Shown here piece by piece: positions 44,866-51,014 of a stretch of 64,000 bases of DNA (its first letter is position 1; each line of letters opens with the position of its first letter). The notes beneath the pieces were generated by a model, which did no database searches, was not told where the DNA came from, and saw nothing but the letters and a program-made list of their open reading frames with translations. A program made the translations under genes and the position numbers. This stretch comes from an uncultured Planctomycetota bacterium (GTDB taxonomy: Bacteria; Planctomycetota; Phycisphaerae; Tepidisphaerales; Tepidisphaeraceae). Location: assembly GCA_963841915.1 (NCBI GenBank), contig CAWJEN010000003.1, forward strand, positions 1 through 64,000, written 5' to 3'.

Positions 44866-46017
<1,152 letters not shown>

Positions 46018-46123
46018 ACGCTCTGTCTTTTGCGGATGCGAAGTCGGAACGTTTGGGCGGGAAGAAGGTCGCGTGTGCCAGGTGGATTGGCAACCCGGCG
46101 GCCGACCGCTCGGCGAGCCACGC

Positions 46124-49100
46124 TCAAAGCTTCGCCAGATCCGCCTCGGCTTTGGCAAGCTGATCCCGCGTCTCTTGCACCAAGTGCGGGGGAGCCCGAT
46201 CGGTGTACCCCTTGTTGGACAAGCGGCCGGACAAGGCGGCGACCTGCTTCTGAAGCGCCGCCTTCTCCTTGGCGACGCGGTCGGCGTCGGCGGCCTTGTC
46301 CACGACGCCGCCGACGCGGATCGTTGTGTCGGCAGCCGTCGTTTCGGCCGCGTCCTCGACCGTCTCCTTCACCTCACAGTTGGCCCAAAGCTCAAGGGTC
46401 TGGCGCACATCGTCGGCCACCTCGACCGCGACCGGCACCGTCTGTCGCGGCGGTACCTTGTTCTCCGTTCGCACGCGACGCACCGCCTCGGCGATCTCGC
46501 GGACCCGCTCGATCGACGCCTCGGCCGCTTCGTCGGCAAACGTCACCGTCGGCCAGGCGGCGGTAATGCACCGCTCGTTTGCCGGCAAGTCGATGACGCC
46601 TTCGATGCCGCGCGTGGGCATGGCTTCGTTCAGTGCCCACCAAAGGCGTTCGCTGACGAACGGCATGATCGGGTGCATCAGTCGAAGCGCGCCGTCCAGG
46701 CAGGCCGCCAACGTCGCAGCGGCGGCGGCATCCTGGGCCTTCATCCGCGGCTTCGTCGACTCGACGTACCAGTCGCAGAAGTCCCGCCAGAAGAAGTCGT
46801 AGATGGCCGTCGCGTATCGGTCAAAGCGATAGTCGGCCAGGGCCGCGTCGCATTCGCGGACGGCCGCGGCGAGGCGCGACAGGATCCACCGGTCGGCGGT
46901 GGTCAGATCAATCTCGCCTGTCACATCGGCGTTGTGCAGGTTCGAGATGACAAACCGCCCGGCGTTCCAGATCTTGTTGGCAAAGTTGCGGCCGTGATCG
47001 AACTTGCTGCTCGTTGTGCCGGCCGCGGGTCGGTCGTCGGTCGCCGTCGCTTCACCGCTGGCGATGCCGTATGGGCTGACGCTGTGCTTGCCTTTGTGCT
47101 CCTGGATCGGCTTGAAGACGGTGTAGCCGCTGTTGTTGGTGAAGGTTTGGCCCGGGAAGGTCTCGCCGGTGTGCGGGTCGACGAGGTCGACGGGCAGGCG
47201 GACGTCCTGCGTGTGGGTCGTCATGCCGCAGAGCGTGAACCGCATGGCGTCGGCGCCGTGGGAGTCGATGACCGCCAGCGGGTCGACGCCGTTGCCGAGC
47301 GACTTGCTCATCTTCTGGCCGTGGCCGTCCTGGATCATCGCGTGGATGAAGACGTCTTTGAACGGCAGGTGCGACGCGTCCGCCCCACGCGGGCCCCGAC
47401 CGTGAGGGAGGGGTTCTGAATGAAGTTCTGAAAGGGTCGCTGGATCGAGTTCTGATGTCTGGCGGTCGTCCAGAACCCCTCCCTGACGGTCGGGGCTCGC
47501 GTGAGACTGTTCGACATCTTTTTTCGAGTCGGAGCGCTGCTCGTCGGGGTGGGCGAGGAGGTAGCGGTTGAACATGACCATCCGCGAGACCCACAGCGTG
47601 ATGATCTCGCGTGCGGTGCACAGGACGCTGGTCGGGTTCCACTGCTCGAGCGCGGGCGTGCGGTCGGGCCAGCCGAGCGTGCTCATCGGCCACAGGGCAC
47701 TGGAAAACCAGGTGTCGAGGACGTCGGGGTCCTGCTCAAATCCTGCCTTGTCCAGCTCACCAAGGAACTTGTCCGCATTGCTTGGGACGGCGTACTGGTA
47801 TCCCCACGAGCTGTCCGCTCGGCGATAGGAGTAGTACGGCGCGATGCCGTGCGGATCATCGGGATCGCCGAACGTGAGTTCATTGGGTTCCGTGCTCTCG
47901 CCCGGATCGAGGTCGCTCTGGTAAAGCGCCGACTGTGACCCGCTCCACACCGGGATCCGGTGCCCCCACCAAAGTTGGCGGCTGATGCACCAGTCGCGGA
48001 GGGCGGCGTTCCACTGCGTGTAGGTCTTGGCGTACCGGTCGGGCACGAACCGCAGCACGTCGTCGCCCAACGCGAACGATCCCTGCGAGCCCCGACCGTC
48101 AGGGAGGGGTTCTGATTCTGAGCGAGCCCCCGACACCCCTCCCTCACGGTCGGGGCTCGCATCGCTCTCGACGCTCTCGACGGACGCGGGGTTGAGCGGG
48201 CGCCCCTGACGATCGACCGTGTACCGGATCGCCCCCTCAACCGACCCCGACGTTTTGAGATAGCGCGTGCTCCCGTGACGGGTCCAGACCTTGCGCTCCC
48301 CGTCGACGAGCGACTCCTCTCGAAGACGACGCGTCGCGTACGCCTTGAAGTCCGTCATGACCTTCTCCGGCGTCGCGTCGGCCGACACGACGGCGTGCAG
48401 GTGGTTCGACCGCACGTGCAGCGCGTGAAGCGTCCAGCCGCGGTGTCGGCAGACGTCGACGATCGCGTCTTGCACCGTAATCCGCTGGGCCTCGTCGAGC
48501 TCCGTCGGCTCATGCTTGAGGCGGGCGAACTGGCGACGCTCTTCGTCTTCGTCGCCAACGAGGTAGGGCTCGCCCGGGATGTTGTGTCGTTTGGGGTCGG
48601 CGCTTCCGAGCTCGCGACCCTGGAGCCAGGTTCCGTAGGTCGTGAACGTGATGAGATACGAGAGGGTCTCCCGCGAGCCCTGAGCGTGAGCGAGGGGTTC
48701 TGAGCGAGAAGCGGAATCCCCTCCCTCACGGTCGGGGCTCGCGGGGATTTTCTCGCATCCCGTCAGTGCGGTGAGTGCGAGACCTGCGAGCGAATTCGCC
48801 GGGACGTCGGTGCCCTCGACCTTGCCGGTGTCGGGCATCCACGGAATCGGCTTCTGGACCGCGACGTACCACTGGTCACTCAGGTACGGCTCGACCGGCA
48901 CGTGGCTGCGGTAGCTGTGGCCGACGCTGTGGCGGTACGGGCGGACCTCCTCGAGCAGGTCGTGCTCCTTGAACCACGAGACGATCGCCTCGCGGGCGGC
49001 CTCGCGGGAGAGGCCGACGAACTGCCTGGCGGCGTCGGTCTCGGGCGTCCAGCCGTGTGCGTCGGAGATCGACGCGTCGGGGGCCATGATGTTGATGGCC

Positions 49101-50155
49101 GCAAGGCTGTGCCGCTGGCCGATGTCCCAGTCGTTGGGATCGTGAGCGGGCGTGACCTTCAGGAAGCCGGTGGCAAACTTGGCCTTGGGGTCGCTTTCAT
49201 CGCTCGGCATGACCACGTAGTCGTCCTCGACGATCGGGATCTCGCGGTCGACGATCGGCAGCAGGACCTTCTTCCCGCGCAACCCCGCCGCCCTCGGGTC
49301 GTTCGGGTTGATGGCGACGGCGGTGTCGCCGAGCATCGTCTCGGGACGCGTCGTGGCGACGACGACATACTCGAGTTCTCCGTCGCGAGCCCCGACCGTG
49401 AGGGAGGGGTCCGGGTCGCTCGAGGAAGACCCCTCCCTCACGGTCGGGGCTCGCGAGGTGCTCTCGGGTCGGGTCTCGTTCAACGGCGCGAGCGGATAAC
49501 GCAGGTAGTAGAACTTCCCATCGATCTCCTCGTTCTCAACCTCGTCGTCGGCGAGGGCGGTTTGGGTGACGGGGTCCCAATTGACCAGCCGCTTGCCGCG
49601 GTAGATGAGGCCGTCCTTGAAGAGGCGGAAGAAGGCCTCTCTCACGGCCGCGGCTCGTGGGGGGTCCATCGTGAAGGCGGTGCGTTCGAAGTCGCAGCTG
49701 CAGCCCATTGCCTTGAGCTGGCCGAGGATGACGGTTTCGTATTCGTCCTTCCACGCCTGGACCTTGCCGATGAACTGCTCGCGTCCCGGCTGGCCGGCCG
49801 CTTCGTCGAGCTTGTAGTCCTTCAGCGCCTTCTCACCCGCCGCCTGGAGCCGTTTGTCGACGACCGTTTGCGTCGCAATGCCCGCATGGTCGGTGCCGGG
49901 AATCCAGACCGCGTTCAGCCCCCGCATGCGGGCGTGACGCACCAGAATGTCCTGGATCGTGTTGTTCAGCGCGTGCCCGAGGTGCAGCGCAGCGGTCACA
50001 TTGGGCGGCGGGATGACGACGCTGAACGGCTCCTTGCTTGCGTCGGGCTCGGCGTGGAACAGCCGCTCGTCGTCCCAAACCTTCGCCACCTCGCTCTGCA
50101 CGGCAGTGGCGTCGTAACGGGGCGGCAGCTCGGTCGTCGGGGTCGTGTCAGACAT
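46124..50155 (-). CDS. valS: Valyl-tRNA synthetase with in-frame REP doublets and an embedded transposase domain
   Basis: PPPNVT.LHLGH (HIGH), ATTRPET, KVTPAHD, WCISRQLWWGH, DTWFSS, KMSKS, DWYVE, C-terminal coiled coil; uninterrupted frame. Confidence 0.96.
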   Translation of the reverse strand: MSDTTPTTELPPRYDATAVQSEVAKVWDDERLFHAEPDASKEPFSVVIPPPNVTAALHLGHALNNTIQDILVRHARMRGLNAVWIPGTDHAGIATQTVVDKRLQAAGEKALKDYKLDEAAGQPGREQFIGKVQAWKDEYETVILGQLKAMGCSCDFERTAFTMDPPRAAAVREAFFRLFKDGLIYRGKRLVNWDPVTQTALADDEVENEEIDGKFYYLRYPLAPLNETRPESTSRAPTVREGSSSSDPDPSLTVGARDGELEYVVVATTRPETMLGDTAVAINPNDPRAAGLRGKKVLLPIVDREIPIVEDDYVVMPSDESDPKAKFATGFLKVTPAHDPNDWDIGQRHSLAAINIMAPDASISDAHGWTPETDAARQFVGLSREAAREAIVSWFKEHDLLEEVRPYRHSVGHSYRSHVPVEPYLSDQWYVAVQKPIPWMPDTGKVEGTDVPANSLAGLALTALTGCEKIPASPDREGGDSASRSEPLAHAQGSRETLSYLITFTTYGTWLQGRELGSADPKRHNIPGEPYLVGDEDEERRQFARLKHEPTELDEAQRITVQDAIVDVCRHRGWTLHALHVRSNHLHAVVSADATPEKVMTDFKAYATRRLREESLVDGERKVWTRHGSTRYLKTSGSVEGAIRYTVDRQGRPLNPASVESVESDASPDREGGVSGARSESEPLPDGRGSQGSFALGDDVLRFVPDRYAKTYTQWNAALRDWCISRQLWWGHRIPVWSGSQSALYQSDLDPGESTEPNELTFGDPDDPHGIAPYYSYRRADSSWGYQYAVPSNADKFLGELDKAGFEQDPDVLDTWFSSALWPMSTLGWPDRTPALEQWNPTSVLCTAREIITLWVSRMVMFNRYLLAHPDEQRSDSKKDVEQSHASPDRQGGVLDDRQTSELDPATLSELHSEPLPHGRGPRGADASHLPFKDVFIHAMIQDGHGQKMSKSLGNGVDPLAVIDSHGADAMRFTLCGMTTHTQDVRLPVDLVDPHTGETFPGQTFTNNSGYTVFKPIQEHKGKHSVSPYGIASGEATATDDRPAAGTTSSKFDHGRNFANKIWNAGRFVISNLHNADVTGEIDLTTADRWILSRLAAAVRECDAALADYRFDRYATAIYDFFWRDFCDWYVESTKPRMKAQDAAAAATLAACLDGALRLMHPIMPFVSERLWWALNEAMPTRGIEGVIDLPANERCITAAWPTVTFADEAAEASIERVREIAEAVRRVRTENKVPPRQTVPVAVEVADDVRQTLELWANCEVKETVEDAAETTAADTTIRVGGVVDKAADADRVAKEKAALQKQVAALSGRLSNKGYTDRAPPHLVQETRDQLAKAEADLAKL
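47386..47503. repeat. REP doublet 4 inside valS (solo)
   Basis: 33-bp arms 47386-47418 and 47471-47503 with 2 mismatches; encodes ASPDRQGG...PLPHGRG. Confidence 0.9.
48084..48161. repeat. REP doublet 3 inside valS (downstream flank of the transposase domain)
   Basis: 27-bp arms 48084-48110 and 48135-48161 with 1 mismatch; encodes ASPDREGG...PLPDGRGS. Confidence 0.9.
48670..48745. repeat. REP doublet 2 inside valS (upstream flank of the transposase domain)
   Basis: 28-bp arms 48670-48697 and 48718-48745 with 3 mismatches; encodes ASPDREGG...PLAHAQGS. Confidence 0.88.
49383..49456. repeat. REP doublet 1 inside valS (solo)
   Basis: Perfect 29-bp inverted repeat 49383-49411 and 49428-49456; encodes RAPTVREG...PSLTVGAR. 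Confidence 0.92.
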
Positions 50156-51014
50156 GAGAACGAACCAGCGTAGAGCGACCGCCAATGCCTCAGCCGATAG
50201 GCTGGCGACGTTGGACCCGCTTCACGTCGAGATCGAGAAGGCACCGCTGCTGAGCATCGGCCTGCCGCAGACGCTTCGGGCGATGAAGGCGACGCTGCCG
50301 ATCAGAGGCAACCTGCCGCCGAACGGGTTGCGGATCGTGCATCTGAGCGATCTGCATCTGCGCAACCACGTCCCGCCAGCGCTGCCTTGGCTTGCGAAGC
50401 GACTGGCAGCTGATCCGCCGGACCTGATCCTGATCACCGGTGATTTTGTCGACGACAAGGTAACCTGTGACGCGACGCCGACGCTCGCCAAAGCCGCAAA
50501 CCTCCTGCGGCCGATGGCAACGCTTGGTCTGTTCGGCTCGATCGGCAACCACGACGGTGACCTCATCGCCGCCCGGCTCGAGGCAGCAGGCATTGTCCCG
50601 CTGCACGGCCGACGCGTGCGCGTGGAGAATCGTGGCTTCCCCGTCGAGCTTCTCGGTCTGCCGGGCACCACGCGGTACGAGTGGCCGGGCGTCAGCACGT
50701 TGTCGCGAAACCCGGCCGTGCCGCTGATCGTGCTGGGGCATTATCCCGACGAGGTTCGCCGCGTGCTGCCGCTGAGGCCGTCGCTCTACCTCGCCGGTCA
50801 CACCCACGGCGGCCAGATCGCGATGCCCAAGGTCGGCCCGCTGCTCACCCACGACGGCCTTCCCAAGCATCAAAGCAGCGGCATCCATCGCTTCGACGAC
50901 ACCTGGCTGAGCGTCTCCCGCGGCATCGGGACGACGCGACTGCACGCCCGCTTCCTCTCGCCTGCCGAGTACGGCGACCTCACGCTCGTGGCCGCTGACG
51001 AAGCGCAGGCCTGA
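50145..51014 (+). CDS. Calcineurin-like metallophosphoesterase
   Basis: LSDLH, TGDFVD, GNHD, AGHTHGGQ, SRGIG; true start probably downstream of the valS start. Confidence 0.9.
   Translation: MSDMRTNQRRATANASADRLATLDPLHVEIEKAPLLSIGLPQTLRAMKATLPIRGNLPPNGLRIVHLSDLHLRNHVPPALPWLAKRLAADPPDLILITGDFVDDKVTCDATPTLAKAANLLRPMATLGLFGSIGNHDGDLIAARLEAAGIVPLHGRRVRVENRGFPVELLGLPGTTRYEWPGVSTLSRNPAVPLIVLGHYPDEVRRVLPLRPSLYLAGHTHGGQIAMPKVGPLLTHDGLPKHQSSGIHRFDDTWLSVSRGIGTTRLHARFLSPAEYGDLTLVAADEAQA

Follow-up and report, generated by a model that had tools for sequence, protein, structure and literature searches.

How a nuclease of mobile-element type could be made from inside an essential gene, with neither a start nor a stop codon of its own, is the question raised by a 64,000-nucleotide stretch of DNA from an uncultured planctomycete of the family Tepidisphaeraceae (GenBank assembly GCA_963841915.1, contig CAWJEN010000003.1, positions 1 to 64,000; hereafter the window). 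The stretch carries valS, the gene for valyl-tRNA synthetase (ValRS), and within valS an in-frame cassette encoding a nuclease core of the HUH/Y1 type between two DNA hairpins. An initial interpretation made from the letters alone, the sequence-only reading, had proposed that a RAYT, or REP-associated tyrosine transposase (REP, repetitive extragenic palindrome), lives here inside valS without inactivating it. Our analysis makes it probable that a RAYT-like nuclease is made solely as a domain within ValRS and still serves its hairpins. The gene and the cassette comprise the following features:

46124-50185, minus strand: valS, one open frame of 1353 codons from a TTG at 50185.
49973-49984, minus strand: HLGH, the HIGH-type signature of valS, intact.
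47300-47314, minus strand: the KMSKS signature of valS, intact.
48077-48742, minus strand: the whole in-frame cassette, 222 codons, made up of a hairpin-coded linker, the HUH/Y1 core and a second hairpin-coded linker.
48179-48670, minus strand: the HUH/Y1 nuclease core (class 3 TnpAY1, RAYT-like), 164 amino acids, own start and stop absent.
48623-48658, minus strand: core motif YLITFTTYGTWL.
48395-48403, minus strand: His-Leu-His, the HUH metal-binding motif.
48269-48292, minus strand: core motif KVWTRHGS.
48206-48232, minus strand: AIRYTVDRQ, with the catalytic Tyr and Gln (Y-x4-Q).

The host frame contains no stop in its 1353 codons, its database protein begins at the ATG at 50155 and has 1343 amino acids, and it scores 935.8 bits (cut-off 704) and 806 bits against NCBIfam valS equivalogs, above the cut-off in both cases. 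The cassette lies entirely within this single frame, as had been claimed for it. LAGLALTAL and DDVLRFVP are separated by 233 residues, in good agreement with the roughly 220 extra codons first noticed, and the four motifs picked out at that time (YLITFTTYGTWL, NHLH, KVWTRHGS and AIRYTVDRQ) are all present. The site lies after the ValRS chain comes back from the editing domain and before the F-x-P-x-R-Y...WCISRQ segment; here residues 444-710 take the place of about 15 residues (364-378) of the Thermus thermophilus enzyme (1GAX).

A profile search and a structure prediction, both suggested by the sequence-only reading as checks, agree on what the insert is. The Pfam family PF01797 (Y1_Tnp) matches the insert alone at 29.0 bits and the whole protein at 26.0 bits, against a gathering cut-off of 23. 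In an AlphaFold2 model of the module built with 112 homologues, the core has a predicted local distance difference test score (pLDDT) of 92-99 and both hairpin-coded linkers fall below 60, and the core follows the strand-helix order of IS200 TnpA. All 30 Foldseek matches to the PDB at E<=0.001 are TnpA proteins of the IS200, IS608 or ISDra2 type, a Sulfolobus transposase, or the RAYT structure 4er8 from Escherichia coli, the last of which matches the core model at E 5e-5. Judged by profile and model, then, the insert core is a member of the Y1 HUH superfamily with an IS200-type fold, and it is predicted to fold as an independent domain of that type. The motifs NHLH, W-T and Y-TVDR-Q fit those of class 3 TnpAY1, the consensus among relatives being NHVH, and on sequence the enzyme appears to fit class 3 better than the canonical RAYTs. 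A tblastn search of the 3.63-Mb assembly returned a single copy of the core, the one in valS.

Two inverted-repeat doublets were said to bracket the core, and they do so with arms that are 89% and 96% complementary. Two further doublets stand alone elsewhere in the gene:

48670-48748: hairpin doublet on the 5' side (valS sense), arms 48670-48697 and 48718-48745, inverted repeat of 28 nt, 89%.
48079-48161: hairpin doublet on the 3' side, arms 48084-48110 and 48135-48161, inverted repeat of 27 nt, 96%.
49385-49453: solo hairpin doublet, in frame in valS and read in another frame (RAPTVREG...PSLTVGAR), folding z -9.4.
47390-47500: solo hairpin doublet, in frame in valS, lying upstream of KMSKS and with a loop of 64 nt, folding z -6.8.

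The 5'-side doublet codes for ASPDREGG...EPLAHAQGS (folding z -6.2) and the 3'-side doublet for ASPDREGG...EPLPDGRGS (folding z -7.5; linker pLDDT 27-49). The two are direct repeats of each other, each about 70 nt long and 582-588 nt apart, and their outermost arms are mutually complementary over 31 nt at 94%. When folded as single-stranded DNA, the four doublets of valS give z scores of -6.2 to -9.4, and none of 200 shuffles folded as well. A 22-nt arm occurs eight times in the window, always within valS, where 0.00 copies were expected from 100 shuffles. The arms encode low-complexity linkers of the form ASPDREGG...PLPxGRGS that are predicted to be disordered, and the segments coded by the solo doublets have pLDDT values of 38-44 (49385-49453) and 33-40 (47390-47500).

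The solo sites also differ among the related genomes that we compared, which are designated by G numbers with the source assembly as G000. At 47390-47500, G003 has a shorter hairpin and G009 has none. In the loop after YPL, at the entry to the editing domain, the hairpin is of type A in G000 and of type B in G004, and G003 and G009 have none; this permissive loop has taken in hairpins of different families. In G008, the loop equivalent to 48040-48790 lacks the module and carries another palindrome-like coded insert (SPLAGEGG...PLPQGEGE), which may be the scar of a solo hairpin or an independent insertion.

The claim that the module has neither a start nor a stop codon of its own is borne out. 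From 48790 to 48560, a run of 77 codons, there is no in-frame ATG, GTG or TTG, and the valS frame is free of stops; the other two frames of the minus strand contain 1 and 5 stops over the same interval. The same holds more widely, since in none of 18 embedded copies from other sequences is there a Met within the 15 residues before the first strand, whereas 57 of 97 short free-standing relatives begin their protein in the region before that strand. In a search that was blind to gene calls, all seven close copies in five genomes lay inside open frames of 589-1617 amino acids; no free-standing close copy was found in those five genomes, and their other matches were distant (25-34% identity). The frame therefore suggests, by sequence, that the nuclease is translated as a ValRS fusion. 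AlphaFold2 applied to ValRS residues 1-1200 (54 carriers) gave a mean pLDDT of 78.6, with most of the ValRS body at 85-98, the module core at 79-96 and the four hairpin-coded stretches at 27-49, a model consistent with folded beads joined by flexible surface linkers. Compared with its T. thermophilus counterpart, the same protein also carries some 64 inserted residues, ~1000-1063 (46995-47186; VDLVDPHTGETF...SSKFD); this insertion is not hairpin-coded, is conserved among relatives and is modelled with high confidence with short strands.

It is conceivable that the insert is removed before the mature enzyme is made, by RNA splicing, ribosomal bypass or protein splicing, in which case continuity of the frame would be incidental or would serve the nuclease. 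The very stable bracketing hairpins, whose outermost arms can pair with one another, would suit such a process, and two hairpin insertions elsewhere shift the host frame without other visible damage. IStrons are a precedent for IS200/IS605-type elements carried on self-splicing RNA. Against removal, Rfam models gave 15 matches at E<=1 in positions 45500-50800, all of them generic hairpin look-alikes below their gathering scores, with no intron model among them, and Pfam profiles found no Hint or intein family in ValRS at E<=0.1, in line with the absence of intein machinery already surmised from the letters. The residues at the junctions vary among G000, G003, G004 and G009. Moreover, a spliced insert needs no frame on both sides, no stop-free linkers and no loss of its start, and all 18 of 18 embedded copies show all three. 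An intein was rejected for lack of a Hint domain at E<=0.1 and of conserved junction residues in the four genomes compared, and a self-splicing intron or IStron was set aside after Rfam returned no group I or group II intron match. Because there is no Hint domain and the splice-junction residues are not conserved, the mature enzyme most likely retains the insert, and we consider its removal by splicing or bypass unlikely.

Of 30 related genomes, four carry the valS module at the same place (G001, G003 and G004 of the same genus, and G009 of another genus), and 25 have a contiguous valS without it, 13 of them from the same family, including G006, and 12 from other families of the class. These supply the empty-site alleles that the sequence-only reading had called for. 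The valS of G002 is fragmented and was left out of the presence/absence call. The hrpA genes of G002 and G004 contain a related module in frame, at a site that is empty in G000; G002 further has the type-A module in a Gfo/Idh/MocA open reading frame (ORF), at its C-terminal end, and in G015 a relative of the module forms a free-standing frame of 199 codons.

A phmmer search of 1.84 billion representative proteins gave 2511 matches at E<=0.001. Nine of the ten best were long proteins, and the other domains found in the long top matches were ValRS, AlaRS (alanyl-tRNA synthetase), AddB, HrpA and a lactonase. When the search was restricted to longer proteins, the 120 clusters listed were distributed among hosts as follows:

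ValRS-type hosts: 56 clusters, including the ValRS studied here.
AlaRS-type hosts: 36 clusters.
DUF1156/methylase-like hosts: 4 clusters.
HrpA hosts: 3 clusters.
PF20466 hosts: 3 clusters.
Nucleotidyl-transferase hosts: 3 clusters.
Hosts seen in a single case: 6 clusters.
No other domain: 9 clusters.

The source names of the carriers include Phycisphaerae, Phycisphaerales, Phycisphaeraceae and Planctomycetota. Of the 56 ValRS proteins with both landmarks, 55 have the module in the interval from QW to WCISRQ. The one that differs is P0180, named by its source as the ValRS of Phycisphaerae bacterium RAS1, in which the usual site is empty and the module occupies another loop, between STLGWP and ...IITLWV (residues 600-960); tandem arrays of half-arm-coded units (EEPLPHGRGSEGR repeated) flank it there. 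In AlaRS, the interval from WNLVF to YRVIADH holds the module in 31 of 36 proteins; a second site is used in three, and in two the landmark was not found. Two AlaRS frames, P0154 (1541 amino acids) and P0155 (1481 amino acids), hold two HUH modules at different sites with different hairpin-coded linkers, and an AlaRS with two HUH modules was also seen in genomes G242 and G152. A search of 301 genomes of the class, again blind to gene calls, found matches at E<=1e-20 in 69 of them, 99 matches in all; 19 of the 99, in 17 of the 301 genomes, lie within open frames of at least 500 amino acids, and these include the 13 best matches. The in-frame module is thus a widespread and old architecture that is not peculiar to the source genome.

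This breadth also bears on the suspicion that the locus is an artefact, either through chimeric assembly or because this valS is a pseudogene and its work is done from elsewhere. The source assembly (3.63 Mb, 6 contigs) is 93.8% complete, so a second valS could be missing from it, and the valS of the congener G001 has several frameshifts. A second valS, which the sequence-only reading had named as evidence that would count against it, did not appear when two host parts were searched by tblastn against this 93.8%-complete assembly, the other matches being paralogues of only 22-26% identity; the gene at 46124-50185 is the only valyl-tRNA synthetase gene found there. The same architecture recurs in the independent assemblies G003, G004 and G009 and in the 56 ValRS clusters, which come from several sources and include a record given as an isolate by its source, and the 1353-codon frame is intact with all ValRS motifs and a host dN/dS of 0.19-0.29. 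We regard an artefact as very unlikely. In G001 itself, valS changes frame at least three times within 900 nt, in conserved host parts among others. Since conserved host parts are also hit and that assembly is 80% complete in 3 contigs, the frameshifts look like sequencing errors, and we did not accept G001 as evidence of a broken valS allele.

Catalytic residues were said to be intact, and sequence comparison indicates that they are intact and under strong purifying selection. Both His residues are invariant in 113 aligned homologues, and Tyr and Gln are present in at least 90% of these. Among embedded copies, conservation is 100% in 58 of 58 ValRS-embedded and 38 of 38 AlaRS-embedded rows for both His, the Tyr, the Gln and four more residues that are invariant in the family (K, W, G and S); Tyr and Gln occur in all 116 embedded rows, and the second His is missing in one of the 116. 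Comparison of G000 with G003 gave pN 0.121, pS 0.671 and dN/dS 0.078 for the module and dN/dS 0.27 for the host part, and over the compared pairs the ranges were 0.08-0.45 for the module and 0.19-0.29 for the host. In an alignment of 54 module-bearing ValRS proteins the module columns are as invariant as the ValRS catalytic columns. GC content at third codon positions is 0.85 in the module and 0.85-0.90 in the host gene.

Constraint of this kind is what would be seen if the HUH module no longer served its hairpins and had been kept for the benefit of the synthetase, for example because it binds nucleic-acid helices, takes part in regulation or moonlights as a nuclease. Such domestication, in the service of the host, is the chief alternative to our interpretation. 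The constancy of the site (the same loop in 55 of 56 ValRS and one site in 31 of 36 AlaRS), the single module copy per genome and the low dN/dS all speak for it. So does descent: host and module identities are correlated (Spearman 0.40; 1378 pairs among 53 full-length carriers), which indicates that most inheritance of the module is with the host gene. RAYTs in general, as far as the available text of two sources goes, are likewise single-copy and mostly vertically inherited (PMC5581495; 10.1101/2022.05.22.493013).

Other observations count against domestication. The absence of the module from 25 of 30 relatives means that it is dispensable for ValRS, and the same module lineage is found in HrpA, AddB, a lactonase, DNA methylase-like proteins, GlnE and Gfo/Idh/MocA proteins. 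A mere binding domain would not need the catalytic Tyr and the HUH motif, which have been kept. The flanking hairpins have also been retained, their cognate families rise and fall with module type (see below), and the cassette appears to have been replaced between close relatives. For the last point, the ValRS proteins of G003 and G004 are 85% identical outside the insert, and their modules are 50% identical and flanked by different hairpin types, whereas between G000 and G003 the host parts are 74% and the modules 82% identical. The G004 cassette has another hairpin type within immediate host flanks that are typical of the genus, and the G003/G004 discordance looks, on sequence, like a replacement limited to the cassette. 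Weighing both sides, we consider domestication somewhat unlikely.

Phylogeny points to some movement as well. The Gfo/Idh/MocA copy of G002 and the type-A module fall together in one group (SH-aLRT 97). In a FastTree phylogeny of 256 modules, which is weakly resolved (107 of 246 forks open), the ValRS label requires 14 changes, at least five of them on well-supported branches, and the AlaRS label requires seven and would allow a single origin. A single ancient insertion followed by purely vertical descent was found insufficient, given the G003/G004 discordance and the at least five well-supported changes of the ValRS label.

If the nuclease still serves its hairpins, as we propose, the hairpins should be considered across the whole genome. 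Allowing up to 4 mismatches, the G000 assembly contains 50 arms, which form 23 doublets and 4 single arms, and four of the doublets lie in the 4-kb valS gene. The doublets are placed as follows:

In frame, in ORFs with a Pfam family: 15 (valS 4, carB 3, putA-like 2, crtI-like 2, and one each in lysS, hrpA, an amidohydrolase gene and a cstA-like gene).
In long ORFs, with homology not on both sides: 2 (a vWA protein and one ORF without a Pfam match).
At a change of the host frame: 2 (a fumC-like gene and the first putA-like site).
Upstream of genes, or of unclear placement: 4 (including the groEL and argH leaders).

The arm-to-arm length is divisible by three in 15 of the 23 doublets (binomial p 0.0017 against an expectation of 1/3). 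Some doublets are clustered, with three in carB (C4:55346-59278), three in the putA-like gene (C6:1470777-1473158) and two in the crtI-like gene (C6:1177441-1179690); no remnant of a module was found between the clustered doublets of these three genes. A core, CGACCGTGAGGGAG, is common to all hairpin types, which are told apart by their outer and inner stem. The tetranucleotides CCGA, GCGA or ACGA occur inside the stem of the arms.

Hairpin families were then counted in five related genomes by type (A, A', B and C), allowing at most 1 mismatch; reversed-pattern controls all gave 0.

G000, module type A: 25 A, 11 A', 1 B and 0 C arms.
G002, modules A and C: 50 A, 33 A', 3 B and 62 C arms.
G003, module type A: 6 A, 40 A', 1 B and 0 C arms.
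G004, modules B and C: 1 A, 3 A', 11 B and 4 C arms.
G009, module type B: 0 A, 0 A', 24 B and 0 C arms.

Arms of types A and A' together number 36, 83 and 46 in the type-A carriers G000, G002 and G003, compared with 4 and 0 in G004 and G009. Type B arms number 11 and 24 in the B carriers G004 and G009 and 1-3 in the other three genomes, and type C arms (62 and 4) occur only in G002 and G004, the two genomes with an hrpA module.

The valS cassette has parts in common with several known systems. Class 3 TnpAY1 enzymes, according to the available portion of the survey by Quentin, Siguier, Chandler & Fichant (2018, PMC6006769), carry the motifs NHVH, W[TA] and YV[VI]xEQ, are encoded by free-standing genes with a median length of 178 amino acids in Planctomycetes, Acidobacteria and Proteobacteria, and are flanked by atypical genome-repeated hairpins whose 5' foot is the tetranucleotide CnGA. 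That survey, in the same portion, discarded unexpectedly long proteins as 'gene fusions or annotation errors'. The module studied here resembles this class in its N-H-u-H, W-T and Y-x4-Q motifs, its occurrence in Planctomycetes, its core of about 160-180 amino acids and its unusual flanking hairpins; unlike the class as described in that portion, it has no start or stop, lies inside a frame of 1353 codons and has Leu rather than Val as the u residue. The RAYT/REPIN systems known as REPtrons (E. coli TnpA-REP, 4er8; Pseudomonas RAYTs, Bertels, Gallie & Rainey 2017, PMC5581495), to the extent covered by the accessible text, are similar in that a single-copy HUH/Y1 enzyme stands between its own palindromes, dispersed cognate doublets co-vary with the type of enzyme, and the enzyme is inherited mostly vertically under purifying selection. 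The valS module differs from RAYTs in that it is not free-standing and in that its hairpins, whose copy numbers are low (tens per genome), are mostly intragenic and not between genes. In-frame palindromes have a precedent too. Hairpin repeats of about 66-108 nt that add 20-40 residues are reported in working genes, among them genes for tRNA synthetases and for DNA repair, and comprise the Rickettsia palindromic elements (RPEs) and the intragenic GTAG/CGTC REPs (Di Nocera et al. 2013, PMC3733652, in the text available); in-frame REPs of this sort are on record for Rickettsia, Opitutus and others. The hairpin repeats of G000 are like RPE-type elements in lying in frame in functional genes (15 of 23 doublets); RPEs and intragenic REPs are reported in that text as short repeats only, whereas the valS cassette carries the enzyme itself between two repeats.

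Comparison with inteins that carry homing endonucleases is also instructive. Both are in-frame nuclease inserts at a fixed site in an essential, conserved protein, both are patchily distributed among relatives, and in both the nuclease would be produced through translation of the host gene alone, as the valS frame suggests. They differ in that the present enzyme is a single-strand nuclease of the HUH/Y1 type, not a LAGLIDADG or HNH enzyme, and has neither a Hint domain nor conserved junction residues. IS200/IS605 insertion sequences are multi-copy elements with subterminal hairpins, unlike this module with its one copy in the genome. IStrons, in which a group I intron is fused to IS200/IS605-type elements, are removed as RNA by the ribozyme. 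Like IStrons, the cassette is an element of the IS200 superfamily that persists inside a gene without destroying it; unlike them, it matches no intron model at the valS insert and keeps the host frame. In-frame REP hairpins and class 3 TnpAY1 enzymes are thus already known. In full-text searches that covered openly available main texts, we found no published description of a Y1 or RAYT domain in frame inside a synthetase.

Several points weigh against the interpretation that we prefer. The name RAYT-like, used by the sequence-only reading, holds in part: the Y1 profile and the fold match the RAYT 4er8, whereas the NCBIfam RAYT model NF047646 (REP_Tyr_transpos) scores 25.9-28.9 bits, below its cut-off of 80, with the motifs closer to class 3 TnpAY1. 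The IS200/IS605 TnpA model NF033573 likewise scores 26.4-29.4 bits, below its cut-off of 55, and because of these scores the module is filed under neither equivalog. Strong conservation and mostly vertical descent, as judged from the alignments, would fit domestication as well as a selfish role. The host frame switches at the fumC-like doublet (G000:C4:136906-138138) and at the first putA-like doublet (G000:C6:1470600-1471300); these are either real frameshifting insertions in a split or dead gene, in which case some insertions would perhaps not be read through, or indel errors at hairpins in the 6-contig assembly. The co-variation of hairpin type with module type is an association and not a test, since the five genomes are related and not independent. 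The single-strand nuclease activity that we propose is deduced from conserved residues, and the AlphaFold2 output carries no inter-domain geometry for the module on the enzyme. Among public sequencing runs, those matching the stretch were three metagenome runs that share only 0.04-0.06 with it, and no RNA run. Metagenome reads placed at 80% likeness gave only short contigs, which belong to other organisms and cover the conserved flanks of valS; some of them join across the insert, and they are uninformative for G000.

With these points in mind, a RAYT-like nuclease made only within ValRS and still serving its hairpins could work in the following way. The cassette would be REPtron-like, with a class 3 Y1 HUH core between two cognate hairpin copies, set in a short ValRS loop and read through, so that the valS promoter and ribosome start would produce the nuclease only as an inner domain of a working ValRS. 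The nuclease would still act on single-stranded copies of the hairpin, as RAYTs are thought to act on REPs and REPINs, and by doing so may keep or move the approximately 23 cognate doublets of the genome, which are mostly intragenic. Residence in an essential gene would shield the cassette from loss, because only in-frame deletions are tolerated there, and one tolerated route of loss would be recombination between the flanking doublets to leave a solo hairpin. Constitutive expression and protection from deletion are the putative advantages of the site named by the sequence-only reading. Over long times the cassette would mostly be inherited with valS and would occasionally be replaced or moved to other genes. 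More tentatively, and as a possibility to which we give somewhat less than even weight, the carriers may represent a lineage of Y1 HUH enzymes with an obligately in-frame life. In such a lineage a cassette without start or stop would be made only as a domain of essential enzymes, chiefly ValRS and AlaRS, would remain catalytically active and would be exchanged or moved by cutting at the common core CGACCGTGAGGGAG. It would correspond to an intein with its homing endonuclease, but without splicing, and would maintain a population of in-frame hairpins in the proteome of the host while itself undeletable.

RAYT/REP systems are usually treated as free-standing genes with extragenic repeats. Here the module lies within an essential translation enzyme in at least 92 distinct protein clusters (56 ValRS and 36 AlaRS), and in an unbiased sample it is embedded in 17 of 301 genomes of the class. 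The arrangement has a bearing on annotation too: carrier synthetases go under names such as 'class I tRNA ligase family protein', 'transposase, partial' or, for some of them in one source, 'alanyl-tRNA synthetase/REP element-mobilizing transposase RayT'. Provided that the fusion is produced and is active, a mobile-element enzyme could persist for long periods without a gene of its own, and selfish DNA would have a second route, besides inteins, for residing within essential proteins. The long-standing question of RAYT function would then become testable, since the enzyme is tied to an easily purified protein and to a small, countable set of hairpins.

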